A program made the translations under genes and the position numbers. Below are positions 16,915 through 64,000 of a stretch of 64,000 nucleotides of DNA, one piece after another. This DNA comes from an uncultured Candidatus Saccharibacteria bacterium (GTDB lineage Bacteria > Patescibacteriota > Doudnabacteria > UBA920). A model generated the notes under the pieces. That model saw nothing but the letters and a program-made list of their open reading frames with translations, did not search any database and had not been told where the DNA came from. The stretch lies in NCBI GenBank assembly GCA_964512925.1, contig CAZEKH010000002.1, positions 122,505 to 186,504 on the forward strand. Reading direction: 5' to 3'. Numbering within the stretch: the stretch's first letter is position 1; every line of letters begins with the position of its first letter.

Positions 16915-16918
16915 ATAG

Positions 16919-17036
16919 TGGGCAGCTACCTACTTTTGCGCTAGCATTCACTAGACTATCATCGGCCAAGATACGTTTGACTTCCGAGTTCGGGATGGGA
17001 TCGGGTCGTTCCTTACCTTGAAATGCCACCCGCCAC
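16919..17036 (-). rRNA. rrf: 5S ribosomal RNA
   Basis: The reverse complement contains the conserved CCCGATCCCATCCCGAACTCGGAAGT 5S core. Confidence 0.8.
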
Positions 17037-17101
17037 CCCGCCTTTTCTATGAAAGGGCGGGATAACTGATTGCATTAGATATAGCTTCCGCGTTTATCTG
17101 C

Positions 17102-17120
17102 ATCCGCCAGCTGGCGGATC
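17102..17120. repeat. Palindrome ATCCGCCAGCTGGCGGAT in the 23S-5S spacer
   Basis: Identical to the palindrome at 21308..21324 on the other side of the 23S gene. Confidence 0.7.
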
Positions 17121-17235
17121 CGCGTTGTCTAATATAAATTGAATATTGGGTACAGCAAATTTGAAAAGTTGAACCGCTCAGAATGGCTGATATAAAATCA
17201 AAGCCACAAATCGCTAGTCAAAATAGATTAAAACT

Positions 17236-20868
<3,633 letters not shown>

Positions 20869-39108: not shown

Positions 39109-39184
39109 TGGTGGACCCTACCGGGCTCGAACCGGTCACCCCCACATTGCAAATGTGGTGCTCTACCAAATGAGCTAAGGGCCC
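39109..39184 (-). tRNA. tRNA-Ala (anticodon TGC)
   Basis: The reverse complement GGGCCCTTAGCTCA...TTTGCAA...GGTTCGAGCCC...CCACCA folds as a cloverleaf with the G3:U70 identity pair and an encoded CCA. Confidence 0.9.
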
Positions 39185-39214
39185 TAATCATTCTGAATTA
39201 AATGCTCAATATGA

Positions 39215-39439
39215 CTATACGGCTCCCGAAGGGAGCATATTAAACAACCATAAAACCGACAACACACACATCGCAAAGCCAAAAAGTTTCCACCAAGTAT
39301 AAGTTCCGGAAGCCATCCCGCCACCAAGATATTTTTCAGCAAAATCAATCTTTCCGGTAATTTGATCAGTCAAATATACCGCATATTTCATAAGCAGAAT
39401 ACCGGCTGCAAATAAAAGTGGGGAAAAAATGAAGCGCAT
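39215..39439 (-). CDS. Small hydrophobic ORF between the two tRNAs
   Basis: 74 aa with two predicted TM helices. No other support. Confidence 0.3.
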   Translation of the reverse strand: MRFIFSPLLFAAGILLMKYAVYLTDQITGKIDFAEKYLGGGMASGTYTWWKLFGFAMCVLSVLWLFNMLPSGAV

Positions 39440-39488
39440 ACTTTATTTTAACTGCTTAACATTTACAATTTTTACTCTTTGACCGTTA

Positions 39489-39565
39489 TGGTGGGCGTAC
39501 CAAGATTCGAACTTGGGACCTCGTCATTATCAGTGACGCGCTCTAACCAACTGAGCTATACGCCC
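39489..39565 (-). tRNA. tRNA-Ile (anticodon GAT)
   Basis: The reverse complement GGGCGTATAGCTCAGTTGGTTAGAGC...CTGATAA...GGTTCGAATC...CCACCA. Encoded CCA. Confidence 0.9.
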
Positions 39566-44612: not shown

Positions 44613-44737
44613 AAAAAATTTTAGTAATTGTGGGTAACTTGACGCATCCTAAAGTATGTTATAATATAAGTAATCAATAAGTAGGCCTCTTATAAGCGAA
44701 AGTCGGCTCCATGCCGTGCGTTGGGAAACCAACCTAG

Positions 44738-45520
44738 CTATAAGGGGCTTATTTTATTTATTGAGAAGGTGTTACCTCTGCTGTAAAAATTATTGGGATA
44801 TTTATCTGTATCATAAACGTCACAAACGAATTTTACTTTACTTTCAATAAATTTATAATAACGATCCTCGCCTCTTACAAAAGCTCTTTGAATAGCCCAA
44901 TTCATATAATCAACTATTTGCAAACATGCTTCTCCATATGGACTTTGTGGGAGAATGGCTATTTTTGAATCAATTTTCATTTTATGCTCAGTTTCAAATG
45001 AATTTTTTGCGGTTTGGATAGCTTCCTCCAAAGGAGCCTGGCGAGTTTTATTACCCCTAACAGCAAAGTAAATAAAAATTTGTTCAGCAACGTGTAATTT
45101 ATTTTTGAACAACTTAATTATTAAATCGTCATAGAATAAATTTTCTTTGCCTTTATGACGCACCTTAAAAATATTTTCAATTTTTCTTGCAACAATGAAT
45201 TCCGCTTTAAAATCTAAACCTAAAATAGTTTTATAAACTTTCTCTCTAATTTCCGGCGTATCGTCTTTAGCATGAAACGCTAAATGACTTTTCTTTAGCG
45301 AAGGAATATCTTTAAGATACTCATCGTTCTTTATCTCCTCATGAAGTTTGAATATTGCATTTCTTAAAGGTTCTGGGTTAGTTGTTTTGATGAAGCCAAG
45401 TAATAAAATTTTTGAACATCCCTCTTTGCCAACAATATACCTACCATATCTATCATAAAAAGTAGAATCACCGGCCTCATCCACAAAAAAATACTGGGTT
45501 TTTACATCATTCAACTTCAT
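44738..45520 (-). CDS. DUF3800-like protein inserted between mod and res
   Basis: N-terminal YFFVDEAGD and C-terminal LQIVDYMNWAIQRAF match the DUF3800 pattern. Confidence 0.5.
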   Translation of the reverse strand: MKLNDVKTQYFFVDEAGDSTFYDRYGRYIVGKEGCSKILLLGFIKTTNPEPLRNAIFKLHEEIKNDEYLKDIPSLKKSHLAFHAKDDTPEIREKVYKTILGLDFKAEFIVARKIENIFKVRHKGKENLFYDDLIIKLFKNKLHVAEQIFIYFAVRGNKTRQAPLEEAIQTAKNSFETEHKMKIDSKIAILPQSPYGEACLQIVDYMNWAIQRAFVRGEDRYYKFIESKVKFVCDVYDTDKYPNNFYSRGNTFSINKISPL

Positions 45521-45521
45521 A

Positions 45522-47075
45522 TTAGTAAACCCTTACCTCATAAGGGATTTGTTTAAAGATTAAATTATACTTTTCTAAATCCGAATTATCCAGTAAACAC
45601 CTATCAGCATAAATGACTTTCTTGCTTCCGTCTTTTTTCAGCTTCTTTAGAAAAGATTTGTCTAAAATGTTGTTACCTTTTTCCCTAAATAACAAATAAA
45701 ATTCGGTTTCGCCAAACGTTCCAATAAAATTATTTCTAATATTTTTTGGATCAATGTTGGTCTGGGTTTCGGTAAAATAAATATAGGTTGCAAGCTGATT
45801 AAATTCGCACTCTTCTTCTATTTGACCTTCTTCATTAAACAAAGGCTTGCTAAGTTCACAATATTCAAATCCATCATTGTAATCATATTTTTTAATGGCA
45901 CGCCTAACACGCTCGGCTGTTATATCCTTAGCAACTTTATCTTCCATTTCGACCATTATAAATTTACGATCACCTCCATCTTCTTTATTTAGATCCATCA
46001 CAGCATGGCCTGTTGTGCCAGATCCAGCAAAGGAGTCTAAAATTATTGAGTTTTTATCTGTTGATAATTGTAAAATCCTCTTTAGTAATCTGACTGGTTT
46101 TGGGGTCGCAAAAGGAACTTGTTCTAATTCTTCAAAAAATAACTTTATCTCTCTTTTGGCTTCTTGATTATGACCTACTTCATCGGAAACCCAAATGGTA
46201 TCTACTTTTTTTCCTTGCTGTACTTCGGTTAAAAATCTTTTTAGCCTAGGAAAAGCTGTTCCGTCTTTACCAAACCAGATTCTATTTTCAGCAATCATAT
46301 TCAAAAGATTGTCTTTAGAGTAAACCCAATGCTTGCCTTTGGGTACATTGTATTTCTTTCCTTTGGGGGCTGTTATCTCATAATAACCTTCTTTCCTCTC
46401 TTCGTTCGCAACCAAATCACCAGAAGACCATGGACCCCTTGGGTCATTATCAGGATTTTGAAACCTGGCATTCATTGATTCTGTGCGAGGTAAAAGGTTT
46501 ATTACTATCTTTTCTAAATTATTTGCATAACAAAAAATATATTCGTGGTTGTCTGAGACATATTTTGCATCATTCTTAGTACTGTGAATTTTTTCCCAAA
46601 TAAAATTGGCAATAAAATTTTCACGACCAAAAACTTCATCCATAAGCCCTTTAAAATAGTGACCTTCATAATCATCTATAGAAACAAAAATCATTCCATC
46701 ATCGGATAATAAATCCTTTAAAAGTTTAAGTCGAGGCAACATCATACATAGCCATTTATCATGACGGTTTAAATCTTCAGACTCTCGCCCCACAACCTTT
46801 CCTAACCACTTTTTTATTTTTGGTGAATTAACTTTGTCATTGTAAACCCAGCCCTCGTTACCAGTGTTGTACGGGGGATCTATGTAAATACATTTAACCT
46901 TACCGGCATAGTAAGGCATTAAAGCCTTAAGAGCTTCTAGATTATCACCATGTATAATTAAATTTTGCGAATGGTCACCGACAGAAGCGCTTTTAACTTT
47001 TTTCAGAAGTCTAAAGGGTACTTCTTTATCGTGGTTAGCAACTGCTTCTTTACCAATCCAGTTTAAAGTAGGCAT
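45522..47075 (-). CDS. mod: Type III R-M N6-adenine DNA methyltransferase, Mod subunit
   Basis: IYIDPPYNTGNEGW (motif IV, DPPY) and a C-terminal FAGSGTTGHAV (motif I). Confidence 0.85.
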   Translation of the reverse strand: MPTLNWIGKEAVANHDKEVPFRLLKKVKSASVGDHSQNLIIHGDNLEALKALMPYYAGKVKCIYIDPPYNTGNEGWVYNDKVNSPKIKKWLGKVVGRESEDLNRHDKWLCMMLPRLKLLKDLLSDDGMIFVSIDDYEGHYFKGLMDEVFGRENFIANFIWEKIHSTKNDAKYVSDNHEYIFCYANNLEKIVINLLPRTESMNARFQNPDNDPRGPWSSGDLVANEERKEGYYEITAPKGKKYNVPKGKHWVYSKDNLLNMIAENRIWFGKDGTAFPRLKRFLTEVQQGKKVDTIWVSDEVGHNQEAKREIKLFFEELEQVPFATPKPVRLLKRILQLSTDKNSIILDSFAGSGTTGHAVMDLNKEDGGDRKFIMVEMEDKVAKDITAERVRRAIKKYDYNDGFEYCELSKPLFNEEGQIEEECEFNQLATYIYFTETQTNIDPKNIRNNFIGTFGETEFYLLFREKGNNILDKSFLKKLKKDGSKKVIYADRCLLDNSDLEKYNLIFKQIPYEVRVY

Positions 47076-47254
47076 TTTAATTTTTTCAAATCTTCTATTA
47101 AATTTCCTAAAACTTTCTACACCAGGACTCTTATATTCTATATTTTACACCCTTCTTAAGTTCTTTTCCATAACAAAAATCCCTTGTTTCAAAGGGTTTT
47201 GGGAAATTTTGTGGATTGGAATGGGACTTACAGTAATATAAATTTAACACGCAC

Positions 47255-47300
47255 TTTTAACGATATTGTCAACTAATATCGTTAAAAACGAGCAAAATTC
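47255..47300. promoter_or_regulatory. Nested perfect palindromes upstream of mod (TTAACGATATTG-tcaac-TAATATCGTTAA; CGTTAAAAA..TTTTTAACG)
   Basis: 11-bp and 9-bp perfect stems about 180 bp upstream of the mod start. Confidence 0.4.
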
Positions 47301-47353
47301 AGTCTTTTTAACGGTATTGCTCATTATATTCAGACTTGTTTTCTTTGGAAGGA

Positions 47354-47650
47354 TCAGAGTAAAAGTTTTAGGAGAACTTTGACTTTTTGGTTGTCTTGTA
47401 TGTTTTCTTTTTTTCGAACTTCTGCTTTTAAAGGCAGCAGGTATGTGCTGGACTTTTTGTCCGGAAAAATAGAAGTCTTCCATTGGCTTTTACCTATCAC
47501 GACTTCCACCCTAAGCGACCCAAAACCCCGTCCAACTGAACCAAAAAGGGTTTTGATTTTTTTGGACATATCTTTTGGCAAACTGACAAACCGCCAGGCC
47601 GCCATCCCGGGGTACACCCAAATTTTACTTGTAAATTCAAATTGATTCAT
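47354..47650 (-). CDS. DUF1905-family small protein
   Basis: MNQFEFTSKIWVY...AWRFVSLPKD matches the DUF1905 N-terminus. Confidence 0.55.
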   Translation of the reverse strand: MNQFEFTSKIWVYPGMAAWRFVSLPKDMSKKIKTLFGSVGRGFGSLRVEVVIGKSQWKTSIFPDKKSSTYLLPLKAEVRKKENIQDNQKVKVLLKLLL

Positions 47651-47653
47651 ATT

Positions 47654-48376
47654 TTAAATTCCGCTGATACCAAACAACTTGCCAACGCCGAAAGTTATTG
47701 CCATCGCAAGTATCCCTCCTGTAACCACTCGAACCACCGCTTTTGTTTTGTTTGCCCCGCCGGCGTAAGCGCTTAAAAAGCCGGTTAATATTAAGGCTAA
47801 ACACACTCCGAAAAATGTCACTGGCACGCGGAACTTAGCTGGCGACAAAATTATTATACCTATGGGCACCACTGCCCCGACAAAAAATGCCGCGGCTGAA
47901 GCCATAGCTGCGTGCCAAGGATTGGTTAAATTTTCAGGATCAATGCCCAATTCCGCGTCCAAATGCGCGATGAATGATCCTTTCAAAGTCAATTCCGAGG
48001 CCACAGTGTTGGCAGTTTGTTCAGACAAACCTTTGTTCTGATAAATTTTTGCCAGCTCTTTTTGTTCAAACAAAGGATCAGCTAACAACTCCAAACGCTC
48101 TTTCTCTATTAAAGCTTTTTCCGTATCACGCTGGGTGCTAACTGAAATATATTCCCCCACGCCCATAGACAGCGCGCCCGCCAACAGCCCGGCTATACCG
48201 GCTGTCAATATTGCCGAGGCGGAGTCGGAAGCGGCAGCCACCCCGACCACCAAAGAAGCTGTAGAAACTATGCCGTCATTGGCGCCTAAAACCGAAGCCC
48301 TTAGCCAGTTAAGTTTTTCTCCTGACTTTGTGCTATGCGGTTCAATTTTAGAAATATTCTTTGTTTCAGTATTCAT
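47654..48376 (-). CDS. VIT1/CCC1-family iron/manganese transporter
   Basis: LRASVLGANDGIVSTASLVVGVAAA and a C-terminal TM bundle. The acidic loop is typical of the VIT family. Confidence 0.8.
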   Translation of the reverse strand: MNTETKNISKIEPHSTKSGEKLNWLRASVLGANDGIVSTASLVVGVAAASDSASAILTAGIAGLLAGALSMGVGEYISVSTQRDTEKALIEKERLELLADPLFEQKELAKIYQNKGLSEQTANTVASELTLKGSFIAHLDAELGIDPENLTNPWHAAMASAAAFFVGAVVPIGIIILSPAKFRVPVTFFGVCLALILTGFLSAYAGGANKTKAVVRVVTGGILAMAITFGVGKLFGISGI

Positions 48377-48427
48377 ACTTTAATTATACACCCACAATCA
48401 ACTTCTAAAGAATATTGGAATGTTTTT

Positions 48428-50569
48428 TTACAAATCAATCATACCTTCCCGGCGGATGAAGATTCTGGCCAGGCGGAGCTGGTCGTAGGAGTAAAGGTGA
48501 TTCAGGCTCTCGCGAACGGAAGACAGCTGGAAACCGCCGCATTTTAAAAACTCTGCGGCAATCTTTTGTAATGCTGTTTCCTCAGGCCGCAAATGGCGAA
48601 TATCCAAATCCGTATATTGTAATGCCAACTTTTCTGTATGCTCTAAGATAGTAGACAAAGCCAGACTGCGACGTTTGGCGATTTCTTCCAAAGACAGTTT
48701 TTGCAAAAGAAACTCTTTGGTTTTTTCATAAGTTCCGCCAGTAAAGACCTGCTCAGCCTGCGATGTTTTTGTTTTTTCCATTATATTTTTGGCTTTGGCA
48801 AAATCTTGTATAGCCGCCACAAACTCGGCGCCGTATTTTTCCAATTTTTGTTTGCCTACCCCAAATATATTTCCCAAACCAGAAAGACTCTGGGGAAAAT
48901 ACGTCGCCATTTCCAAAAGACTTTGGTCTCCAAACACCGCATACGGAGGAATACCTTGTTTGTCTGCGATATTTTTGCGAAGCTTCTTTAAAGAAATAAA
49001 CAACTCTTGATTTAATTCTTCTTTCAAGGTTTGATGGCGGCTTTCCGCTTGCCTAGAGACTTCCAAAACCGGAAGAAAAATTTTCTCTTTTTGTTTTAAA
49101 GTTAAAACAGCTTTCTGGGTCAATTTTAAAACTGGATATTCGCCTGAAGTTTTTTCCAAATAATTTTTGGAAACCAACAAATTCATCAACTTCATCAGCT
49201 GCGGCTTGCTAAGGTCTTTCACAATGCCAAAAACCGAAAGCTGATTATGCTTCAAACCCGCCATCCGGTCGCTGATTTTCCCCAAAAGCAAATCCGCCAC
49301 ATATCCTCCGCCATAACGCTGGTTAGTTCTCAAGATAGCGGATAAAATCTTTTGGGAAATCTCTGTGGCGTCAAACTCATCCCTTGGCTTTAAACAAATG
49401 TCGCAACTGCCGCAATTCTTCTTTCCATATTCTTCCCCAAAATATGAAAGCAAATATTTTCGCCGGCACGAAACAAGCTCCCCGTATTCCAACACCTCCT
49501 CTAGTTTTTTCCAGGCTTGTTGTTTCAGCTCTTCATCTTCCATCTGTTGGATAAAAAATCCGTGGCTCCGCCGGTCGCCTTGTGAAAAAAACAGCACACA
49601 CTCGGACAATAAACCATCCCTGCCAGCCCTGCCGGTTTCCTGATAGTACCCCTCCACGCTCTTCGGCAGGCTTTGGTGCACAACCAACCTGACATCCGGC
49701 TTGTCTATGCCCATACCAAAAGCGATGGTCGCGCAAATAATATTTATCTCATCGCGGATAAATCTTTCCTGAACATCAGTCCTTTTTTCCGAACTCAAAC
49801 CGGCGTGATAAGCTTCGACGCTATATCCTTGTTTTTTCAAATCTTCAGCCAGCTCCTCGGTGTCTCTCCTGGAAAAACAGTAAACTATCACACTCTCATC
49901 TTTATATTGAGGCAACAAATCCAAAACCTGCCTGAGAAAATTTTTCTTTGGCAGCACGCGATAACTGAGGTTTGGGCGGTCAAAACTGGATACAAAAATT
50001 TTTCCCTGCCTAAAATCCAACTGCTTTAAAATATCCGCGCGAACTTTTTCCGTGGCAGTCGCGGTTAAAGCAATGATGGGAACTTCAAAAAATATTTCTC
50101 TTAAAACTTTTAAATTGCGATAATCCGGCCGGAAATCATGTCCCCACTCGGAGATGCAATGCGCTTCGTCAATAGCTATCAAGCTGATGTTTAAATTTTT
50201 CAAAAAATCCACAAAACCTAGAGCTGAAAGCCTCTCTGGAGCAAGGTATAAAATTTTTAGTTCGCCATTTTTGGCGCGATTTTGAACATCTAAAATCACG
50301 TCTTCATCCAAAGAACTGTTGATGTAGGCGGCTGAAACCCCATTTTCCAAAAGCGCGTCCACCTGGTCTTTCATCAGGGAAATCAGGGGCGAGACCACAA
50401 TCGTAATGCCGGGAAACTTCAGCGCGGGCAGCTGGTAACACAAAGACTTTCCCCCGCCGGTGGGCATTAAAACCAAACAATCTTTCTTCTCCAGAATATG
50501 ACCAATCACTTCAGACTGCAAAGGCCTAAAACTTTCATAACCAAAATGTTTTTTAAGTAAATCTAGCAT
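48428..50569 (-). CDS. recQ: ATP-dependent DNA helicase RecQ (with RQC and HRDC domains)
   Basis: FRPLQ, PTGGGKS, DEAH and Zn-binding cysteines. 713 aa. Confidence 0.9.
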   Translation of the reverse strand: MLDLLKKHFGYESFRPLQSEVIGHILEKKDCLVLMPTGGGKSLCYQLPALKFPGITIVVSPLISLMKDQVDALLENGVSAAYINSSLDEDVILDVQNRAKNGELKILYLAPERLSALGFVDFLKNLNISLIAIDEAHCISEWGHDFRPDYRNLKVLREIFFEVPIIALTATATEKVRADILKQLDFRQGKIFVSSFDRPNLSYRVLPKKNFLRQVLDLLPQYKDESVIVYCFSRRDTEELAEDLKKQGYSVEAYHAGLSSEKRTDVQERFIRDEINIICATIAFGMGIDKPDVRLVVHQSLPKSVEGYYQETGRAGRDGLLSECVLFFSQGDRRSHGFFIQQMEDEELKQQAWKKLEEVLEYGELVSCRRKYLLSYFGEEYGKKNCGSCDICLKPRDEFDATEISQKILSAILRTNQRYGGGYVADLLLGKISDRMAGLKHNQLSVFGIVKDLSKPQLMKLMNLLVSKNYLEKTSGEYPVLKLTQKAVLTLKQKEKIFLPVLEVSRQAESRHQTLKEELNQELFISLKKLRKNIADKQGIPPYAVFGDQSLLEMATYFPQSLSGLGNIFGVGKQKLEKYGAEFVAAIQDFAKAKNIMEKTKTSQAEQVFTGGTYEKTKEFLLQKLSLEEIAKRRSLALSTILEHTEKLALQYTDLDIRHLRPEETALQKIAAEFLKCGGFQLSSVRESLNHLYSYDQLRLARIFIRREGMIDL

Positions 50570-50645
50570 TCATCCATTATAACAAAAATCCGCCCCTCTT
50601 AGGGGTACGGATCTTATTAGTATTTTACTAACTCACCTTGTGCAC

Positions 50646-50698
50646 TTTGTCATCCCGGACTTGCCTGCCCGCCTTTGGCGGGATCCGGGATCTAGAGT
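50646..50698. repeat. Palindromic element, guaB-flanking family, copy 1 (TTTGTCATCCCGGAC...GCCCGCC-ttt-GGCGGG ATCCGGGATCTAGAGTT)
   Basis: Nested hairpins. The ends are near-identical to the copy at 51996. Confidence 0.65.
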
Positions 50699-50846
50699 TA
50701 TTGCCAATAATATAAGAAGTTAATATACCACTGGATCCCAGATATTTTTCAGTTAAAGCCCTGAAAAATTCTAGTATGACACACAATTTATAAGTAATTT
50801 AAGCCAATTTGCGTAAGGTAAATTACTAAACCCTAAAACCTATACC

Positions 50847-52013
50847 CTAATCCCTATCTCCATAATTCGGAGCTTTTTTTACGATCTGCACATCGTGCAC
50901 GTGACTTTCCCTCAGGCCCGCTCCGGTGATCTGGACAAACTCCGCGTTTTTTTGCAGCGCTGAAATATTTTTTGCCCCCACATACCCCATCCCGCTTCTC
51001 AGGCCGCCGACCAGCTGTTCAATGATGGGCACAACTCCGCCCTTGTACAAAACCCTGGCTTCCACGCCTTCTGGCACCAGTTTTCCGCCCACCACATCGT
51101 CCTGGCCGTAACGGTCTTTACTGCCAACATTCATTGCTCCTAAACTGCCCATTCCCCGGTAAGATTTATACCATTTCCCATGGTCTTCAAACTTTTGTCC
51201 CGGCGCCTCGTCTGTGCCCGCAAACAAAGACCCCACCATCACAGCCGAAGCCCCGGCTGCCAGAGCTTTGGTGATGTCGCCGGACAGCTTGATTCCCCCG
51301 TCAGCCACGACCGGAATTTTTTTGGTTTTGCAAACTCTGACAGCTTCAAGAATAGCAGTCAGCTGCGGCACACCGCAGCCGGAAACCATCCGCGTGGTGC
51401 AGATACTACCAGGACCGATCCCGACTTTCACACCGTCAGCCCCAGCTCTAACCAAAGCCAGAGCTCCCTGGGCAGTTGCTACATTGCCGGCTATTACTTG
51501 CGCTTGTTTATATTTTTTCTTAATCTGCCTGACTGCTTCTAAAACCCGCTTTGAGTGTCCGTGCGCCGTATCCACCACCAGCGCATCCGCGCCCGCATTC
51601 AGCAGAGCCCCCGCCCTTTCCAAAAAATCCCCAGTCGCGCCCACCCCGGCTCCAACCATAAACCTACCCTTTGCATCCAAACTCTCTATCTTTCTATCTC
51701 TCTTATTCTCTTGCTCTCTGATTCTCTGAAGTTCTGATTTTACTAATCTAACTTCTTCCGCCTGCTTTTCAACTGACAAATTTTTATGGATGACCCCGAG
51801 CCCCCCCTCAGAAGCCATAGCAATAGCCATCCGGTGCTCTGTCACCGTATCCATTGCGCTGGACAAAACAGGAATTTTTAACTTAATTTTTTTAGTTAAA
51901 AAAGTTTCAGTTAAAACTTCGGTCGGCACGACTTCGCTATACTGAGGCGCCAGTAAAACATCGTCAAAACTCAAAGCGAGAGAAATTTTTTTCATTTTAA
52001 TTTGATTTGTCAT
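50847..52013 (-). CDS. guaB: IMP dehydrogenase lacking the CBS (Bateman) subdomain
   Basis: Catalytic-loop region ([10 protein letters not shown]) and [24 protein letters not shown]. The CBS pair is replaced by an ~30-aa charged linker. The annotated first 6 codons (MTNQIK) derive from repeat copy 2, and the native start is probably the Met at 51995. Confidence 0.85.
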
Positions 52014-52043
52014 CCCGGAACCCGCCCAAAACGGATATCCGGG
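51996..52043. repeat. Palindromic element, guaB-flanking family, copy 2; overlaps the guaB start
   Basis: TTTGTCATCCCGGAA-cccgcccaaaacggat-ATCCGGGATCCAGGGTT. Confidence 0.65.
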
Positions 52044-52169
52044 ATCCAGGGTTTATTAAATTTTTTATTCGATAACACCAATCCTAAATATGGCGATTTC
52101 GTAATTCACAGTAATTTAACCTTAAACCCCCGGCCTGGAAAAAGGCAGGGGGTTTGAAGACAAAATTCT

Positions 52170-55100
52170 TTAAGGAATCTCTGTTTTAATAGGCGCGTTG
52201 ACCTTGTTAAACAACAGCAAAGGAGTAACAACATTTTTCACCGCCGGGTTAATGCCATCCTTGATGAAGTTAATAGCAGCGCTGTTCTGAAACCGGCTAG
52301 TATTGGCACTATATCCCGCTGGCAGCTGAGTTTTACCGGAGATAAAAAGTTTGACCACAACCGGAGTGGTAGTTGAAGACGGTGCCAGACTGCCGTTGAT
52401 CGGGATGCTCAAAGTTAGGTTAGGTTCGGTTCCGGAAGCTGTGATAGAACCCAAAGAAAATCCTGCCCCGGATAGACTCATTCCCCAAGCCAAAGGATCA
52501 GTAACGCTTTTACTGGTATCTACCCTCGCCAGGTTGGTCAGTCTTTCAGAAATATTGATACTGGTTGCAGGGTTGCCTCCGAGCACGGGCGCTGTGTTTT
52601 TGACGCAAATTTGATAAGTAATCTTGTCATTGATCTTGTAAGCGACATTTGGCGGGGTTTCGCCAGGAGAACTGCAGTCGCTTCTGGGTGAAGACCCGTA
52701 AGGACTTACATCGTTCAATGCAATTATATCTTTATCTGAAGTTGTCAGGTTGGCATCGCAGGAGATGTAGGCAATAGGACTTGGCAAAGCCAAGCTTTGA
52801 GCCGCAGATGCATTGTTCCAGGCTTCTACCCAATAGTAGTTATTAACCGGATCCATAAACGCCTTATTCGTCTCAGTCCAGACCAAAACCCCCGGACCGA
52901 CAGACTGCCTGAGGGTGGCAGTGGCAAAATTGTTGGTGGTATTGTGATAAATCTTGTAGCCCAAAGGTCCGCCTGAGTTGGCGCCCGGCTCATCCGTCAC
53001 AGCATAAAAAGTGGAGGGGCTGCCCTGGTTGTTGTATTCGGTTTGCAGCAGGTTTGCGCTTCTTAAAACATCTGACATTCTAACTTCGTCTATTTCACCG
53101 ACAAAGTATTCATTAACTCCGCCTGCTCCGCCGATCCAGAAAGTGCTAAATGAAAATGAAGAAGAAATGCTGGTGCTGCCGGCTGAAACTCCGTTGATGT
53201 AAAACTGGCAAGTTGAACCGTTATAAGTTACAGCGACTTGGGTCCAGGTGTTTAAAGGCACGGTTCCGGTGGAGGTGCAGAGATTCTGCGTGCCTGTCCT
53301 TAAGAGGCTCATTGTGTTGTTGCTGTTAACACGCCACTCCGGACCACTGCCGCCGGATTGGGCTATTATCGGATGGTAGCCGGCTGAAGTATTTTTAACC
53401 CACGCTTGGTAAGTAAAGGTCTGACTTTGTAGAGATGCATTGTTGGCGATATTTATAACCTGTCCGCCGCCGGCAAAGCCTGCGCCGCCTCCCATTTTTC
53501 CAACAGCAGCAGTTGCGCCCAAAATCGTACCGTTGTTTGCGCTCTGGCTGGAATCAGTAGCTGAAAGGGTACTGCCGTTCGGCAAATGCCAAACGCCTTT
53601 GTAGTTAGTGTCCCAATAGTGCGAGTTGTCCATATCCTGCTGGTCGGTGGCCACGGCCGGATTGCCCAGATACATATACAAAACTGTATTTGCGGAAGCG
53701 GAAAGTGTCGGAACCTTGATCCAGACAGCCAGCTCTCCGGTAGCCGGATCATATTTTTCTATTTTATGGGAAAGTTTGGTTGTTCCGTCCGAAGAAGTAA
53801 AGTAAATGTCCGTAGCGTCAGCCTTGCCAATCTGTCCGCCGTAAGTGCTGAACCGATAGTCTCCGCCAGACACGGAAAACAGGAACGGGAAATTGGTCAA
53901 ATCCGAACCGCCGACTACTTTAGTTCTGTCTATAGTGATTTTTTTCTTAAACGACCAGATCAAGGGGTTTCCGGAAAATGGCAAAGTCCAGCTGACTTTT
54001 ATGGTTTCGCAGGAAACCGTAGCGTCGCTTGAGGAGTTGAAATTAGCCGTATTGTTCGGACCAGTCAGACACTGTTCTACCTGGATGCCCGTACTGTTGG
54101 AAGCTGAAGCCACCTTGGCGCTTTCCTGAGAGCCGCCGACTGCTGAAACCCAATAGTAGTAGGTGGAAGCGTTAGTCGTCGGACTGTCAGTGGTGGGTGA
54201 AGAAACTGCAGTCTTTATCGGAGCTCCAGTGGTAGCAGGATCATTGGTGGTGGAGCGGTATATATTGTAAGAAGTAGCGCCTGCTGCCGCAGTCCAAGTT
54301 AAAGTAGTCGTTCTAGACGGACAAGGACCTAAATTTACCGCCAAATCTGCAGGAGCGTTCGGCGCAGTCTGCCTCCAGACTGTCAGATACTGGGGCGAGT
54401 TGGAAGCTGCCGGGGAAGAGCCGTTGTCCTGGATAGTCACCAAACAGGACTGACTACCTGGAGAAGCTGGAGCGTCTACAGTTATCGCCACAGTGGTGTT
54501 GGCGTTCTGGGCCAAAGGTCCGCCCGAAGCCGTGCCAACATGGCACCAGGACTGGTTGGTTGAAGCTCTCCACAAAAGCTGGCTACCTGCAGTGCCGGTG
54601 TTGGTAATGGTCAGATTCTGAGCCGCTGGAGCAGCGCCGCCAGCAGTAGCGTTGAAGGTCATCACAGTGGGGCTAAGTCCGATCGCCGGAGCAGAAGTGC
54701 CTACGCAAACACCAGAACCGTTGCAGGTGCCTCCTGGACAAGCGGTGCCGGCTGCTAAGTTTGTAAATGCGGCGCAAGTGCCAGGACTGTTTCCAGTACA
54801 AGCCCCGCCGCTTTGACAAGCGTTAGGCGCAGAACAGCTATAGTTAGTAGCGTTTGTGCAAACTCCATTGTTACAAGTACTATTGTAACTGCAAGCCACT
54901 CCATCGTCGCAAGATGTTCCGTTAGTTGCGGCATAACTGCAAGCTCCCCAAACACCGGCAGTACAAGTCTGCACCCCGGCGCAGGTGCCGGATCCGCAGG
55001 CTTGGGTTGCGCCGTTGGTACAAGCGCCCATATTAACAGTGGCAAAGTTAGCCTGGCTGTTTTGACAGAACTCATAGTTTTGGTTTAGGTTACAAGAAAC

Positions 55101-56594
55101 TTGAAAGTTCTGAGCAGTAGCCGGGGCTTTGCATTTAAAAACTACATTTTGCCCGTTTACGCTGTCTATGTTTCCGGAGTTGTTTAAAAACCACTTAAAC
55201 CCATAGCCTGCGGAACTGCAGTCCGCAGGTCCGGCGTTAATGGTAACATTGGAAGGAATATTTACGCCATAGTTACAGGACACATAAAAGTCCTGGTTAG
55301 GATTTACGGAATTTAAATTTGTAGCAAATGTAGAAGTGGAAAGCGAAACTCCGCTTTGGGCGCTGTTAAAGGTTGTTGGGGTACAAACAGCATTTCTAAC
55401 TTCCAAAGTAGCAGTTTCAGAATGGTCGCAAGTTCCAACACAGGCGTTTTGAGGATGGGGTGATACATACGCTCTGGCGTGTATTTGATAGTTGCCTATA
55501 TCGGTGTGTTTTGCTAATACTGTATAATTATCCAAAGGAACATCAAAATAACCACTTCTCCAAGAGCCTAACACGCCATAATTTACTGAATTACAAGTTA
55601 TTTCATAAGGCGAATTCATTGTATAACCACACGCAGCTCCATTAATAACCTGGGCTCCAGAACTATCGTACAACTGGCACTCAACACCACCTGAACAATT
55701 AATTTGCATTTGATCTAAACTAGCAGGACCAGTTTTTGCATAGGTAATAGAATAAGTTGTATAAGCATCCACCCCTAAAACCATAGATTGAAACAGTGGA
55801 TTTATTGCAACAGAAATATCTGTCGCACAATCAGCATCTGTTTGACAAAGATCTGTTGACCCCGGACATCCCAAACTTGGATCATAGGTTGTTGAATTTG
55901 GGTCAGAAAAAAAATCATCTCTATTAAAAGTTTGTAAAGTACATGATGATGAGCTACAAGCTTTGTATTGTACTGTACCAGTGCATGTTGCTGGCGATGA
56001 AGGCCCGCTTCCAGTATCTTCAGGACTAAATATTAATCTAAAACTACACCCATTACAATTTGTTTCGCCAGGTATATTTATAGTTCCTCCAGAATTACTA
56101 ACCGAATAAGTAACAGAGCTCCCATCTGGTCTAATTAAAGCAACCCCATTTAAAACTGACCCTCCAGCGCCAATAATATTTCCATTTCCATTTACATTAG
56201 CTGTAATTTGTAAACCTTTTGAGACATCAATAGTACCAGGCGCACTAGCAATCCCAGGACCAGCAGCATTTGGGTTACCAGTCCCATATACTATAGGTGA
56301 AGTTCCATTACCTTGATATACGGTGTTACTACCGTTAGTTATGGTTAAAGATGTGCCACTTGTCACAGCAGAGCCAAAAGGCCAGCTCCCATTTGTTACA
56401 GGTCTTACTCCCTGAGGAGTAAACGAATAAACTAATCCATTAACCGCAGAATCTAGTTGGGCAGGAGTGGAAGATAAAGATGGTTGTGTTGTCGCGTTAA
56501 AATAATAATAGTTAGCAAAAGCTTGTAAATTAAACAAGCCAAAAATAAAAGCGCTCACTCCGACAACTCCTAATAGTTTATATTTTAGTTTCAT
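52170..56594 (-). CDS. Giant secreted surface protein: signal peptide, Cys-rich repeats, FN3 domains, DUF2341 + LamG-like lectin module, C-terminal DUF11-like domain
   Basis: Signal peptide MKLKYKLLGVVGVSAFIFGLFNLQAFA. A long CxxGxC-rich stretch. FN3 (SYNIYRST...YYYWVSAV). DUF2341-like (KIEKYDP..GELAVWIKVP..LYMYLGN). LamG (YQAWVKNT...FYINGVS...VGEIDEVRMS). Confidence 0.75.
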   Translation of the reverse strand: MKLKYKLLGVVGVSAFIFGLFNLQAFANYYYFNATTQPSLSSTPAQLDSAVNGLVYSFTPQGVRPVTNGSWPFGSAVTSGTSLTITNGSNTVYQGNGTSPIVYGTGNPNAAGPGIASAPGTIDVSKGLQITANVNGNGNIIGAGGSVLNGVALIRPDGSSVTYSVSNSGGTINIPGETNCNGCSFRLIFSPEDTGSGPSSPATCTGTVQYKACSSSSCTLQTFNRDDFFSDPNSTTYDPSLGCPGSTDLCQTDADCATDISVAINPLFQSMVLGVDAYTTYSITYAKTGPASLDQMQINCSGGVECQLYDSSGAQVINGAACGYTMNSPYEITCNSVNYGVLGSWRSGYFDVPLDNYTVLAKHTDIGNYQIHARAYVSPHPQNACVGTCDHSETATLEVRNAVCTPTTFNSAQSGVSLSTSTFATNLNSVNPNQDFYVSCNYGVNIPSNVTINAGPADCSSAGYGFKWFLNNSGNIDSVNGQNVVFKCKAPATAQNFQVSCNLNQNYEFCQNSQANFATVNMGACTNGATQACGSGTCAGVQTCTAGVWGACSYAATNGTSCDDGVACSYNSTCNNGVCTNATNYSCSAPNACQSGGACTGNSPGTCAAFTNLAAGTACPGGTCNGSGVCVGTSAPAIGLSPTVMTFNATAGGAAPAAQNLTITNTGTAGSQLLWRASTNQSWCHVGTASGGPLAQNANTTVAITVDAPASPGSQSCLVTIQDNGSSPAASNSPQYLTVWRQTAPNAPADLAVNLGPCPSRTTTLTWTAAAGATSYNIYRSTTNDPATTGAPIKTAVSSPTTDSPTTNASTYYYWVSAVGGSQESAKVASASNSTGIQVEQCLTGPNNTANFNSSSDATVSCETIKVSWTLPFSGNPLIWSFKKKITIDRTKVVGGSDLTNFPFLFSVSGGDYRFSTYGGQIGKADATDIYFTSSDGTTKLSHKIEKYDPATGELAVWIKVPTLSASANTVLYMYLGNPAVATDQQDMDNSHYWDTNYKGVWHLPNGSTLSATDSSQSANNGTILGATAAVGKMGGGAGFAGGGQVINIANNASLQSQTFTYQAWVKNTSAGYHPIIAQSGGSGPEWRVNSNNTMSLLRTGTQNLCTSTGTVPLNTWTQVAVTYNGSTCQFYINGVSAGSTSISSSFSFSTFWIGGAGGVNEYFVGEIDEVRMSDVLRSANLLQTEYNNQGSPSTFYAVTDEPGANSGGPLGYKIYHNTTNNFATATLRQSVGPGVLVWTETNKAFMDPVNNYYWVEAWNNASAAQSLALPSPIAYISCDANLTTSDKDIIALNDVSPYGSSPRSDCSSPGETPPNVAYKINDKITYQICVKNTAPVLGGNPATSINISERLTNLARVDTSKSVTDPLAWGMSLSGAGFSLGSITASGTEPNLTLSIPINGSLAPSSTTTPVVVKLFISGKTQLPAGYSANTSRFQNSAAINFIKDGINPAVKNVVTPLLLFNKVNAPIKTEIP

Positions 56595-56643: not shown

Positions 56644-56670
56644 GCTAGGCGGGTGTCCAATCCGCCTAGC
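56644..56670. repeat. GC hairpin gctaggcgg-N9-ccgcctagc in the divergent promoter region
   Basis: 9-bp perfect stem, read directly. Confidence 0.5.
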
Positions 56671-56847
56671 CATCGCGAGGTCCCCAGCAATATCTTGAAA
56701 GCTGTGGGATAACAAAATCCTCATTATAATTGCAGTAGCCTGCCGCCCTCACACTCAATGGTGTGTTATGGGTTTGCGCGTCCATATCTACCCTAAGTTA
56801 GAGTTTTCAGCAGGCCACGAAAATACGATACAACAAAATTCAATTTT

Positions 56848-56886
56848 TGTCAAACTATTGACAAAACCTATAAAATATGCTATATT
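56848..56886 (+). promoter_or_regulatory. Consensus sigma70-like promoter (TTGACA-17-TATATT) with an overlapping palindrome TTGTCAAACTATTGACAA; the transcript would be leaderless or nearly so
   Basis: -35 at 56858-56863 and -10 at 56881-56886. The ATG at 56893 lies 7 nt after the -10. Confidence 0.5.
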
Positions 56887-56892
56887 TTCCAT

Positions 56893-58470
56893 ATGTTAAA
56901 TGGAGGAAAAAGACTTCTGCAAAACGCCTTTTTGGCGACCCTCCTGCTGGTGGGCGCATGCCCCCAGCTTTCGCTCGCGCAACCTCCTTCAGCTGAGCCC
57001 TGGTTCGTCCAGGCACTCAAGATGAACGAACTGCGCCGATCTAGCGCAAGCTTCCCCACGACTTACGTTGTGGGCGATGGGGTCAACTGCAACGACCCCG
57101 CCCTTGCCGGACGGATCGACAGCGCTAAAAGTTTTAGCGTAGTCGATTCGGCTCCTTGCCAAGGGAGCATCTGGCAACACGAGACCAGTGTTGCCAAAGT
57201 TGCTTCGGCCATCGGAGGCCGAGTTGCTAGCGCCAAAATTTTCTCGCTTCCAGAAAAGCAAATCAAGCCTCTGGAATATAAAGCGGCCGACATCAATGCT
57301 GCTTTTGAGAAAATAGCCGACCAAACCAAGAGCGAAGAATTCGCAATTATCAACGCATCGCTCTTTGGTTCAGGTCCAGAGCTCGTAAAAGTGCTGAAAA
57401 GCATGGAAAAAAGAGTTCTCGTCATAGCAAGTGCCGGCAACAACGGCACAACCACTGTCGATAATCCGTGTTGGTTTGGACTCGATCTACCTAACGTCTT
57501 GTGCGTTGGGGCGGTTGAGCAGAGTGGCAAACTCTGGAACTCGAGCAATCGAGGCGCCAGGGTAGAAATGGCCGCTTTCGGCGTCAACATGTACCCAGGA
57601 GTAACGGGTACATCGTTCTCAGCCCCGGTTGTTTCGGGGCTCGCAAGCTCACTCTTTGCAGCGCTAAAAGCGCGGGGATATAGCCCCACGCCAGCAGTGC
57701 TAAAACAGATTCTAATTCAGGGCTCAACCCTGAACGAAAATCTCAAAGGCCTGATCGGAAACCCGAGGCAGGCCAGCGGCGAGAATCTTCTTTCTCTCGC
57801 CCAGAGGGTGTACGCCCCCTGGCCGATAGAGGCAACGGCATTCTCTCCCTTCCCGATCGGTTGGGAAGGCGAGCAGGCAGCGGTAAAAATTTCCGGAGCG
57901 CCCATCAGCCTCCGGCAACTCGGTGTCACCCTGAAACTTCGTGGAGAAAAGGGAGATGTGACAAACATCACCCCAACCTCTGTCGAGAGTGTTCAGGGCA
58001 ATGATGCCCTCTATTTCCCCGCTCCCAAAGCGGGTCGCTACTGGCTTTCTTTGAGTGTTGAGGGTCTCCCCTCGACTCTAGAAACGCCGATAACCATCAA
58101 TCCCCGCCGCAAGGCAGGTCTGATGTTCGGCAGTCGTGGCGCTGCACCGGACTGGTTTGCCCTTCCGGGCGAGGAGCTCCTGCTCCAGATCCCCGGATTC
58201 TCAACCGTTCCCTCCACGCAGATCGAAGCGTGGATCGGAATTTCGCCCCAGGGCGAAGAAACAGAATGGCACCAGGCTGTCATCCTCTCTTCCGCCCAAA
58301 ACTCGGAGCCTGGCTACTTTGAGGCAATAGCCCAGCTCCCGACTGAACTGTCGCCCTTTGAGGGAGTTGCGACCCTCGTACTGCGAGTTCAAGGCAAGTT
58401 CCTTGACTCGCAAATTGAAGTATTTTTGTCCTCCCCTCCGGCTCGTCACCGCCGGCCACGGGGCAGGTAA
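56893..58470 (+). CDS. Secreted subtilisin-like (S8) serine peptidase; GC-rich, likely horizontally acquired
   Basis: Signal peptide, Asp (VVGDGVN), His (HETSVA) and Ser (GTSFSAP) in S8 order. GC is about 58% with foreign codon usage. Confidence 0.75.
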   Translation: MLNGGKRLLQNAFLATLLLVGACPQLSLAQPPSAEPWFVQALKMNELRRSSASFPTTYVVGDGVNCNDPALAGRIDSAKSFSVVDSAPCQGSIWQHETSVAKVASAIGGRVASAKIFSLPEKQIKPLEYKAADINAAFEKIADQTKSEEFAIINASLFGSGPELVKVLKSMEKRVLVIASAGNNGTTTVDNPCWFGLDLPNVLCVGAVEQSGKLWNSSNRGARVEMAAFGVNMYPGVTGTSFSAPVVSGLASSLFAALKARGYSPTPAVLKQILIQGSTLNENLKGLIGNPRQASGENLLSLAQRVYAPWPIEATAFSPFPIGWEGEQAAVKISGAPISLRQLGVTLKLRGEKGDVTNITPTSVESVQGNDALYFPAPKAGRYWLSLSVEGLPSTLETPITINPRRKAGLMFGSRGAAPDWFALPGEELLLQIPGFSTVPSTQIEAWIGISPQGEETEWHQAVILSSAQNSEPGYFEAIAQLPTELSPFEGVATLVLRVQGKFLDSQIEVFLSSPPARHRRPRGR

Positions 58471-58493
58471 CTAGGATGCGCTTCAGCATCCGC

Positions 58494-58540
58494 GGACCGA
58501 CCAGCGCTAAGCCTCACGCGCTGCTCGGTCCTTTTTCTTT
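58494..58540 (+). terminator. Strong terminator after the S8 peptidase gene
   Basis: ggaccgaccagcgc...gcgctgctcggtcc followed by TTTTTCTTTT. Confidence 0.75.
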
Positions 58541-58616
58541 TCCCAAAAATATTTTCCTAAATTTGGGTGAATGGTAAATTTTTACTCACCCCCTGTATCT
58601 TTTTTAAAAACTGTCG

Positions 58617-62457: not shown

Positions 62458-62564
62458 TTTTTAACTTTTGCAATTGTTGTAGGTTTTCTTGTAATTTTTC
62501 CAAACCGCCTTCAACCTTCCTAAATCCATCTTTAAAAAATCCCAATCACTTTAAAAAATTTTGC

Positions 62565-62598
62565 TGTCAACTATGACACATATGTGTTACGTTTGACA
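62565..62598. repeat. 34-bp palindromic element, copy 3 (extended to TTGCTGTCAA...TTGACAGCAA)
   Basis: TGTCAACTATGACACATATGTGTTACGTTTGACA. Confidence 0.75.
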
Positions 62599-62824
62599 GC
62601 AATTCAAAATGCTAAAAATTTTGCTTTTAAAGGATCTATCAAACGCAACATAATTATAAACAAAATTTGAAAAATTTATTGTAGATTTTGATTTGAATTT
62701 AGACCTTGAGGGTTTTGAGACGCTAAATGATTCAACATCTTGCATACAATAAAGCGACACTTCAAAAAACTCAGTGGAAATTCTAGGATATTTACTCAAA
62801 AAAACCAATAAAATACAAATTAAA

Positions 62825-62857
62825 AAACATTCCGTTTATAGCGGAATGTTTTTTTCA
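62825..62857. terminator. Bidirectional terminator
   Basis: aacattccg-tttatag-cggaatgtt flanked by A/T runs. Confidence 0.65.
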
Positions 62858-62879
62858 TATCTTAGTTACAGTGCGAAAG

Positions 62880-63416
62880 CTACTTTTTGATGACAAAATT
62901 TATTGTTACTGTATTAATCTTGGTTTTCTTGTTAACCTCTATAGCCACTTGTGCTGTGATGTTATCCTTTTTTGCGGATATGGATTTTGTTTCCGGCAGA
63001 TCCAAAACAGTTAAAAGCTGCCATTTTTCTTTGTCAAAAAAATCCTTATACGTCTTATACAACACCGCGGAATTAACCTTGCTCTCATACGACCTGGTTG
63101 CCTGGACTTTCAGATTGTTGGAAACATTATAATTTTCTGTCAAAATTCCGCCAGGCGGCACAGGAAAAGATTCCAAAAACCCGTCAGGAAACTTGTCAAA
63201 AGCAACCTGAGTCACTGTTGACGGGCCGGAGGTGGCGTTGTCGTTTTGAGTTTTTTGGATTTCGGGAGCCGGCTGTTTTACTTTTTTACCTCCCCAAAAA
63301 ATATAAGCTAAAACGGCAATTACAACTACTGCCAGCAGCAAAAAAATCAAAGACATTTTGCTGTTTTTATTTTGGGACTGAACCGGGGGCGCGGGAAAAT
63401 TATTCATATTTTCCAT
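62880..63416 (-). CDS. Membrane-anchored hypothetical protein
   Basis: N-terminal TM helix (MSLIFLLLAVVVIAVLAYIFW). 178 aa. Followed by a terminator. Confidence 0.5.
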   Translation of the reverse strand: MENMNNFPAPPVQSQNKNSKMSLIFLLLAVVVIAVLAYIFWGGKKVKQPAPEIQKTQNDNATSGPSTVTQVAFDKFPDGFLESFPVPPGGILTENYNVSNNLKVQATRSYESKVNSAVLYKTYKDFFDKEKWQLLTVLDLPETKSISAKKDNITAQVAIEVNKKTKINTVTINFVIKK

Positions 63417-63546
63417 AATTTTTGTTTCTCAAATCTTAATGACTTTATGTGTTTATATAATAGTACAAATTTTCTCAAAATACAAATATCAAGGGAAATA
63501 CTCCTATAAGACACTCCAGATGCCTACGAAAAAACAGCATAGAAAG

Positions 63547-63966
63547 TTACATAATTAGCGTAACACAAAAGATAACTAAAAAAGCCGAGTTAATAATTGA
63601 ACGTGTATGCTGAATTTTGGGCTTTATGCCGATCTGCAGCATAAGCAAGGTTAAAAAAATACTTATAAATAACCAATAAAATTGCTGGGATAAACCCTCC
63701 TCTGGAATGCTTTTACCCGCATACAAAAACGAGGTTGACTTGGAATAGCTAAAGGGTTGCGTCTTATCGCTTAAACCAAAATTATTCTCCAAACTTGGGC
63801 TAAAATTTGGTCCCAAACTTTTTGCCTGCTCGCCGTTTGCTCCATAAGCAGTAACAGAAACCGTCAAAGAATTTTTGACCAGTCTAAACTCATCTATATA
63901 CCCTTCCCAGACATTTTGTCCTTTGGAGTCCAACATCAATGAAGCATTTCCAAAACTGGCAACCAC
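63547..63966 (-). CDS. Hypothetical protein with a C-terminal TM segment; may extend beyond the window
   Basis: 139-aa ORF at the window edge. No family recognised. Confidence 0.35.
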   Translation of the reverse strand: MVASFGNASLMLDSKGQNVWEGYIDEFRLVKNSLTVSVTAYGANGEQAKSLGPNFSPSLENNFGLSDKTQPFSYSKSTSFLYAGKSIPEEGLSQQFYWLFISIFLTLLMLQIGIKPKIQHTRSIINSAFLVIFCVTLIM

Positions 63967-64000
63967 CTTAACTGCCGGACCCTGAGTTTTGACCTGGATT

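Follow-up and report, generated by a model that had tools for sequence, protein, structure and literature searches.

Background

The S8 subtilases are among the best-studied enzyme families, and their Asp-His-Ser motifs serve as annotation rules. Characterized members, such as subtilisin BPN', the AK.1 protease and PatA/PagA, share the same alpha/beta fold and the H-x-T, AGN and GTSxxxP motifs in canonical order. The Csp proteins CspC and CspA of Clostridioides difficile, which have an S8 fold and an incomplete canonical triad, are reportedly pseudoproteases with a non-catalytic function. The sedolisins (MEROPS family S53, clan SB) also adopt the subtilisin fold, with a Ser-Glu-Asp triad and an oxyanion Asp, and their triad acid lies off strand 1, on the segment that carries the base; they therefore provide a precedent for relocation. 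In these enzymes the acid has been described as having 'moved' onto the base-bearing segment, which takes the form E80-x-x-x-D84 (PMC11593635). In subtilisin numbering, residues 31-34 (LDTG) and 64-65 (HG) belong to one hydrogen-bonded zone, with a contact of 3.2 Å between O(G34) and CA(G65) (PMC11593635). Engineered D32G and D32A subtilisins are inactive alone but regain the hydrogen bond to His64, and with it their activity, when nitrite, azide or a similar anion sits in the pocket left by Asp32 (PMC7935941). A shift of the catalytic acid within the subtilisin fold has so far been known only between families, namely S8 versus S53.

Here we analyze an S8-fold protein encoded in a 64,000-nucleotide stretch of DNA (hereafter the window) from an uncultured Candidatus Saccharibacteria bacterium (assembly GCA_964512925.1, contig CAZEKH010000002.1, positions 122,505 to 186,504 of the forward strand). 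The gene, of 525 codons and a stop, occupies positions 56893..58470 of the plus strand of the window, and its product has a glycine in the column of the catalytic Asp and an acidic residue immediately after the catalytic His. A sequence-only reading of the window had presented it as a horizontally acquired gene for a secreted S8 peptidase. The explanation that we favor, with a confidence that stops a little short of even, is that of a lineage-specific secreted subtilase which has relocated its triad acid, is a resident member of a conserved gene module and is expressed from a leaderless mRNA.

The active site and its correlated substitutions

The product of the gene (P0001 in our set of S8 proteins) matches the PF00082 profile over residues 62-278 with a score of 54 bits (E=2e-14), the cut-off being 21.8, and among the NCBIfam subfamilies none reaches its own cut-off with it. 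The catalytic His (H96, in the motif QHETSVA), the oxyanion-hole Asn (N183, codon at 57439..57441, plus strand, in the motif AGNNG) and the catalytic Ser (S241, codon at 57613..57615, plus strand, in the motif GTSFSAP) all fall in invariant columns of the alignment. The D-[STD]-G motif around the catalytic Asp is absent: the equivalent segment reads V-V-G61-D62-G63, in which G61 (GGC) occupies the canonical Asp column (Asp32 in subtilisin numbering) and D62 (GAT; both codons at 57073..57078, plus strand) sits at the Ser/Thr position. This placement was recovered both by HMMER, which aligns G61 to the Asp of the DTG motif in the AK.1 protease (1dbi), and in three MAFFT alignments. The residue directly after H96 (CAC) is E97 (GAG; both codons at 57178..57183, plus strand), in place of the near-invariant Gly65. 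The sequence-only reading had named the absence of the D/H/S triad from the aligned protein as evidence against itself; His96 and Ser241 align as it expected and the Asp does not, so that formally this evidence is at hand and the peptidase assignment stands for the S8 fold and the signal peptide but not for the canonical catalytic Asp.

To place these two residues in context we used the 149 best S8 relatives together with 120 further sequences (about 260 in all). Of 148 relatives 96% have Asp in the Asp column, and in 97% Gly follows the catalytic His. A Gly at the Asp column occurs in five of the 149 best relatives (P0001, P0010, P0033, P0070 and P0123), and all five have Asp or Glu directly after the His, as compared to none of 252 canonical sequences (Fisher p=1e-10). 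Apart from these two columns no alignment column separates the variants from the canonical sequences. Further, the nearest neighbors of each variant are canonical, and a neighbor-joining tree computed without the two columns requires four independent changes for the four variants that it includes; the fifth variant, P0033, which lies on a contig of 72% GC, is outside this tree. These comparisons indicate that the paired replacement of the Asp by Gly and of the post-His Gly by an acid arose independently at least 4-5 times. P0010 is identical in four contigs from at least three sample assemblies, and hence its variant state is not a sequencing error. P0001 itself departs from the consensus only at G61, E97 and F229 among the 23 positions with at least 85% consensus in the 148 relatives, which is indicative of purifying selection on the catalytic machinery. 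Three of the five variants are S8 genes of a conserved surface-protein module (see below) in ultra-small bacteria of the candidate phyla radiation (CPR) type.

This recurrent and perfectly correlated swap of Asp32 to Gly and of Gly65 to Asp or Glu could represent a naturally relocated catalytic acid. In mechanistic terms, the Asp at the end of strand 1 would have been replaced by Gly and the Gly after the catalytic His by Glu, and the carboxylate of Glu97 would fill the vacated Asp pocket and orient His96, giving a putative Ser241-His96-Glu97 triad. More generally, we tentatively propose, as a possibility that for now falls well below an even chance, that some natural subtilases have a third triad arrangement of the subtilisin fold, Ser-His-(Glu/Asp), in which the acid stands right after the His rather than on strand 1.

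The principal rival explanation is that loss of the Asp inactivated the enzyme, which has been retained as a secreted binding or regulatory subunit, the Glu compensating only for folding or for the charge at the helix N-terminus. The missing canonical Asp speaks for it directly, as do the inactivity of D32G and D32A subtilisins without a rescuing anion (PMC7935941) and the existence of documented S8 pseudoproteases such as CspC and CspA. An inactivated enzyme, on the other hand, would not need a second change that is acidic in every one of at least 4-5 independent lineages, and in the window protein the His, the Ser and the oxyanion Asn are intact, as is every other near-invariant position except one, while its gene still has a strong conserved promoter and a terminator. 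It is because the G-to-E change is paired with the loss of the Asp and lies beside the His that we prefer a relocated acid to decay.

Several observations weigh against the explanation that we favor. All five Gly-variants are singletons, with no clade in which the variant state has been kept over time; this pattern also fits recently inactivated enzymes stabilized by a compensating change, and on account of it the pseudoprotease remains a serious and indeed the main rival, to which we give a probability well short of even. A search seeded with P0033, P0010, P0070 and P0123 (P0001 was not among the seeds) recovered 120 sequences, all of them canonical. One variant, P0123, is altered in the Asn and Ser motifs as well, so that more of its motifs are degraded. 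G61 comes from one assembly, the window protein being known from a single metagenome-assembled sequence. Two other components of the favored explanation, which are taken up below, are affected too: the three closest S8 homologs have apparent leaders of 30-120 nt, so that the leaderless arrangement is not conserved, and the substrate has been assigned from gene neighborhood alone.

Comparison with the described systems brings out what is particular to this protein. Relative to typical S8 subtilases it has Gly for Asp32 and Glu for Gly65, has no I9 propeptide and carries a family-specific pair of C-terminal Ig-like domains. Unlike the sedolisins it has His96 rather than Glu as the base and Asn183 rather than Asp in the oxyanion hole, and its proposed acid is at base+1 instead of base+4; it has neither the Ser-Glu-Asp triad nor the oxyanion Asp of S53, and its affiliation by sequence is with S8. 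It shares with the anion-triggered subtilisins the change of Asp32 to a small residue, but in those enzymes a small external anion takes the place of the carboxylate (PMC7935941), whereas in the window protein a covalently held one, that of Glu97, is proposed to do so. Compared with the Csp pseudoproteases, the Asp alone of the triad is altered in the window protein, the change is paired with the gain of an acid beside the His, and the His and Ser are kept. No paper describing the motif pair of Gly and post-His acid was found in the literature searched. Should the Gly...His-Glu/Asp form prove active, a catalytic residue would have hopped between neighboring structural elements in nature; motif-based filters would then wrongly call such proteins inactive, and protein engineers would have a self-contained alternative to anion-rescued D32G subtilisins. 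If the protein is dead, it is one more S8 pseudoprotease and an ordinary finding.

Fold, export signal and C-terminal domains

An AlphaFold2 model of the window protein, built with an alignment of 81 sequences, has a mean predicted local distance difference test score (pLDDT) of 89.8, and Foldseek searches with this model recovered subtilisin BPN', savinase and PagA/PatA with target-normalized template modeling (TM) scores of 0.70-0.81 and E-values of about 1e-13. The N-terminal 29 residues (56893..56979, plus strand) are predicted to form a signal peptide with K6 and R7 in the n-region, a hydrophobic core at residues 12-22 and a cleavage motif SLA|QPP; this call combines sequence features and hydropathy with the presence of a low-pLDDT N-terminal helix in the model. 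The product is thus predicted to begin with a typical signal peptide, which is followed by a catalytic domain of the S8 fold. A lipoprotein was also considered, as LLVGAC meets a loose lipobox pattern, and was set aside because the context of the Cys is not kept as a lipobox in the homologs.

C-terminal to the catalytic domain the model shows two tandem Ig-like beta-sandwich domains (residues ~313-402 and ~428-515; 57829..58437, plus strand), for which Foldseek finds Fab and tandem filamin Ig domains, and the second of these is followed by a basic tail, PPARHRRPRGR. The Ig-like region is restricted to a small family, being covered by about five proteins in a search of 1.84 billion representative sequences: P0002, P0008 and P0009 are good family matches with 38-45% identity, and P0010 and P0029 are more distant. 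Short Arg-rich tails (PRGR, PRPRR, YRPRR, GRFR) terminate P0001, P0013, P0014, P0017, P0019 and P0022, and may be an anchoring or sorting feature of these S8 relatives.

Gene neighborhood and a conserved surface-protein module

The S8 gene lies between genes for a 1474-aa surface protein with LamG and DUF2341 domains and a 1018-aa homolog of LCAT-type lipases/acyltransferases, as the sequence-only reading had said in placing it between a giant adhesin and a lipase; its surroundings thus code for large secreted proteins. A trio comprising an S8 protein, a membrane-anchored protein of ~170 aa and a giant secreted protein, the latter two homologous between the loci, is found as adjoining genes in the window and in five related loci (L001, L005, L006, L047 and L051). 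Judged from the gene order at these six loci, the S8 gene is a member of a conserved module and not an isolated insertion, and the module is a candidate part of the host-attachment machinery of Saccharibacteria and other CPR bacteria.

A comparable association is that of the SphB1-type proteases, in which the gene of a secreted or surface subtilase stands beside that of a giant adhesin-like protein, its substrate; SphB1 itself is said to be the subtilisin-type maturation protease of the Bordetella filamentous hemagglutinin. In the window the corresponding link is drawn from gene neighborhood only, and the window protein differs from these proteases in having no autotransporter domain. From its place in the module, the secreted S8 protein would most likely act outside the cell, where it would process or trim proteins of the cell surface or of host contact.

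A C-terminal domain with 31% identity over 288 aa is common to the giant surface proteins (C-termini at window 52170-52240 and L001 5005-5075); it ends at the very C-terminus with ...TPLLLF..N.P(I/V)KTE(I/V)P; this terminal motif may be a sorting or processing signal for the neighboring protease. At L001 a second, unrelated S8 gene (722 aa; 12455-14623) lies 900 bp downstream of the ortholog and is preceded by the same promoter box, TATTGACAAAAC (12395-12406).

Promoter and start of translation

Upstream of the S8 gene there is a sigma-70-type promoter on the plus strand (56858..56886), comprising a -35 hexamer TTGACA at 56858-63, a 17-nt spacer, an extended -10 TG at 56878-79 and a -10 hexamer TATATT at 56881-86. 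With 11 of 12 matches it outranks every other site in the 4 kb that were scanned, in agreement with the TTGACA-17-TATATT promoter that the sequence-only reading had identified. The 10-mer ATTGACAAAA (56857-66), which has a single exact copy in the window, is kept upstream of the S8 orthologs of L001, L005 and L006, and the promoter box of the L047 ortholog begins one base in, with TTGACAAAAT.

Six bases separate the end of the -10 box (56886) from the ATG start codon (56893), which puts the predicted +1 on the A of the ATG; the earlier expectation of a transcript starting at or within a few nucleotides of the ATG is borne out by this geometry. There is no Shine-Dalgarno-like motif at -20 to -4. 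The arrangement is not special to the S8 gene. Of the 44 window open reading frames (ORFs) examined, 12 have a -10 box (at least 5 of 6 matches) ending 4-10 nt before the start codon, most commonly at 6 nt, while the same pattern occurs at 4% of random positions and at 10% of ATGs with AT-rich upstream sequence. Shine-Dalgarno-like motifs are seen in two of the 44. Hence, -10 boxes abutting the start codon without a Shine-Dalgarno sequence are a genome-wide style, and the 27% of ORFs with this feature, together with the scarcity of Shine-Dalgarno motifs, suggests widespread leaderless translation in this Saccharibacteria-like genome. Leaderless mRNAs are a feature of Actinobacteria and of Deinococcus-type genomes (the leaderless class of GeneMarkS-2). 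That class and the window genome are alike, the latter as read from its sequence, in having a -10 box 6-7 nt before the ATG and no Shine-Dalgarno sequence in many genes. No paper on leaderless mRNAs in Saccharibacteria or the CPR was found in the literature searched.

The alternative is that the mRNA has a leader or that translation starts downstream, with GGAGGA at 56902-56907 as a Shine-Dalgarno sequence, or that transcription comes from farther upstream. Some traces of a leader do exist: the 10-mer AATGGAGGAA, which in the window lies inside codons 3-6, is found in L001 where the 5' leader begins, so that the window copy appears to have lost its leader; L005 and L006 have purine-rich GAGAGGA and GCAGAGG before their starts; and 10 nt upstream there is another promoter-like site, TTGTCA-18-TAAAAT. 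Yet no in-frame ATG, GTG or TTG occurs 4-13 nt past GGAGGA, and the next in-frame start, a TTG at codon 14, is 25 nt away and would drop the charged n-region of the signal peptide. Taken with the near absence of Shine-Dalgarno-like motifs from the genome, this makes a leadered or downstream start unlikely. In the leaderless model that we prefer, the strong conserved promoter would drive the S8 gene, the mRNA would most likely begin at its own AUG, and transcription would stop at the terminator described next.

Terminator and a candidate divergent transcript

The S8 gene is followed on the plus strand by an intrinsic terminator (58474..58541) made up of a small hairpin (58474-58491), a long hairpin (58494-58531) and a T-tract (58532-58541), with TTTTTCTTTT directly 3' of the long hairpin. 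For the stretch with both hairpins the folding energy is -35.1 kcal/mol (z=-5.4 against shuffled sequences), and equivalent hairpins occur downstream of all four orthologs. Between the window (58483-58549) and L001 (11573-11639) the terminator is 77% identical over 70 nt, although the S8 proteins themselves are only 40% identical, and in this respect it is as well conserved as the best coding segment (73% over 126 nt).

On the upstream side, a 9-bp GC hairpin (GCTAGGCGG/CCGCCTAGC) at 56644..56670 is followed by ATTTTTTATTTTT on the minus strand (z -3.4 for the minus and -4.4 for the plus strand). The sequence-only reading had the S8 gene bounded by the hairpins at 56644 and 58494; both are present and beat shuffled sequences, and the latter is the terminator, but the former lies 250 bp upstream, beyond a divergent promoter, with its T-run on the minus strand, and so is not a boundary of the S8 gene. 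More plausibly, from its position and orientation, it would be the terminator of a short minus-strand transcript. A candidate for this transcript (56666..56853, minus strand), situated between the adhesin and S8 genes, has a promoter-like TTGACA at 56853-56848, a 17-nt spacer and a TATCGT at 56830-56825, and would end at the 56644 hairpin. It encloses a 39-aa ORF (MDAQTHNTPLSVRAAGYCNYNEDFVIPQLSRYCWGPRDG) at 56785-56666, and the 193-nt stretch folds at -70.9 kcal/mol (z=-5.0). The candidate transcript shows no similarity in the related loci, and Rfam searches (E<=1) with the spacer and the 3' region gave two chance-level matches only. The 300-bp upstream spacer might be what is left of the small transmembrane-protein gene that L001 and L005 have at this position, but the two show no detectable similarity and the idea was dropped. 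The back-to-back -35 hexamers of the two divergent promoters form a perfect 7-nt inverted repeat, TTGTCAA-ACTA-TTGACAA (56847-56864), which could be an operator for a dimeric regulator.

Base composition and the question of horizontal transfer

The S8 ORF has a GC content of 55.6-55.8%, as against 40.7% for the rest of the window and a window average of 41%, and its GC at third codon positions (0.584) is the highest of 45 window ORFs (z=+2.8); GC is accordingly not uniform along the window. The GC-rich block (~56,910-58,540) spans the ORF and the terminator and stops short of the AT-rich promoter. The earlier figure of about 58% GC for the gene and its flanks therefore captured the most GC-rich ORF, terminator included, but was somewhat high at 55.6% observed and did not apply to the promoter. 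In codon usage the gene is more atypical than any other of the 44 ORFs (z=-4.3): CTC makes up 39% of its Leu codons as against 6%, TTA 2% as against 28%, and the share of TTC is 55% as against 10-19%. Of the three codons that had been called foreign to the host, only CTC qualifies; GCC (0.33 versus 0.25) and CGG (0.22 versus 0.12) do not exceed the levels seen in the genes for pyruvate kinase and enolase of the same genome (0.35 and 0.23).

The sequence-only reading had explained this composition by horizontal acquisition. In the form that we evaluated, the composition would be due mainly to recent acquisition of the gene, or of this allele, from a donor of higher GC. In addition to the atypical codon usage and the sharp ends of the GC block at the ORF start and the terminator, this is favored by a GC residual of 0.04-0.07 (z=3.1) that is left after correction for amino-acid composition, by the very rare and patchy distribution of the family, with the few members noted above, and by the fact that the codon usage of L001, a GC-richer contig, is fitted slightly better by the S8 gene than the usage of the genome in which it lies, the S8 gene being the sole window gene for which this is clearly so. 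This last fit is only marginal and neither usage is fitted well, and an L001-type donor was consequently rejected.

Other observations weaken the case considerably. About half of the GC excess is due to an amino-acid composition common to the whole family, in which Gly, Ala, Arg and Pro make up 0.26-0.31 of residues versus 0.217 +/- 0.039 in host proteins: host-average codons would give the S8 protein 48.5% GC, and the usage of pyruvate kinase and enolase 51.5%. The direction of the synonymous deviation is correlated (r=0.76) with that of these host glycolytic genes, which prefer C-ending codons. The four closest homologs are likewise at or above the GC of their own flanks, one of them only marginally (L001 0.567/0.491, L006 0.540/0.438, and L005 0.492/0.469, the marginal case). 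The gene has its position, promoter box and terminator in common with distant relatives, and around it there are no flanking direct or inverted repeats, no nearby tRNA and no integrase. The donor lineage expected from a protein search did not materialize: in 5.8 billion clusters and 1.84 billion representatives nothing closer than 40-45% identity was found, and with the nearest homolog at this distance no donor can be named. These best homologs are on related-looking contigs and are too few for a meaningful phylogenetic test. Scans of GTDB genomes, JGI metagenomes (with the lipase and the S8 alignment as queries), IMG/VR and plasmids yielded no member of this small family and no close relative; the plasmid search gave five distant S8 matches only.

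In sum, the gene is a genuine compositional outlier, with its amino-acid composition, the bias of its host and its place in a conserved module accounting for much that had been ascribed to transfer, and with neither donor nor mobile-element signature. Horizontal transfer is possible but unproven, and as the main cause of the composition it seems to us doubtful. The high GC would then be mostly a family trait, that of Gly/Ala/Arg/Pro-rich proteins, combined with the C-ending codon bias of the host. The smaller residual, together with the slightly better fit to L001, makes it possible, as a minority view, that a resident allele was replaced through recombination by that of a GC-richer relative.

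A different explanation for the composition would be an error of assembly or binning, by which a GC-rich fragment of another organism was spliced into the contig. The protein is known from a single metagenome-assembled sequence, as stated above, and no other assembly on record contains the identical protein. Logan contigs of run SRR14271336 (L003 and L004) are 100% identical to 45439-55610 and 62562-64000 of the window, and these same-strain contigs stop at 55,610, inside the adhesin gene, and at 62,562, leaving the 5' part of the adhesin gene, the S8 gene and the lipase gene unspanned. The break may reflect strain variation or uneven coverage. Against an artifact, the GC block corresponds to exactly one ORF and its terminator, the promoter box is conserved at the loci of the orthologs, and the neighboring genes match the synteny of L001 and L005, none of which a chimeric join would reproduce; we therefore consider such an error very improbable.

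The host genome and other features of the window

Besides the S8 locus the window contains genes for type IV pili and a minimal complement of glycolysis and nucleotide genes. The best match of its enolase, with 67% identity, belongs to a Candidatus Saccharibacteria metagenome-assembled genome, with all other matches at or below 47%. In the rRNA region at 16917-20855 of the window the 23S rRNA gene is 3632 nt long as compared to a 2925-nt model, with ~700 nt extra, and a 5S gene is adjacent; in the extra ~700 nt neither an intron family nor an ORF was detected. The long 23S rRNA, the gene set and the enolase match together identify the host as a Saccharibacteria-like member of the CPR. The genes for tRNA-Ile and tRNA-Ala, a pair typical of rRNA spacers, are 18 kb away (39109-39565) and there is no 16S gene in the window, implying that the rRNA operon is unlinked.

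A homolog of IMP dehydrogenase (50847-52013, minus strand; 388 aa) aligns to the IMP dehydrogenase model in two segments, with the CBS (Bateman) subdomain passed over, and its gene is also GC-rich, at 50% and locally 58%. A restriction-modification islet at 42354-47075, with genes for a ResIII helicase/restriction subunit, for a 260-aa protein and for an N6/N4 DNA methylase, is AT-rich (31-35% GC versus 41%), so that its compositional deviation is opposite to that of the S8 gene.

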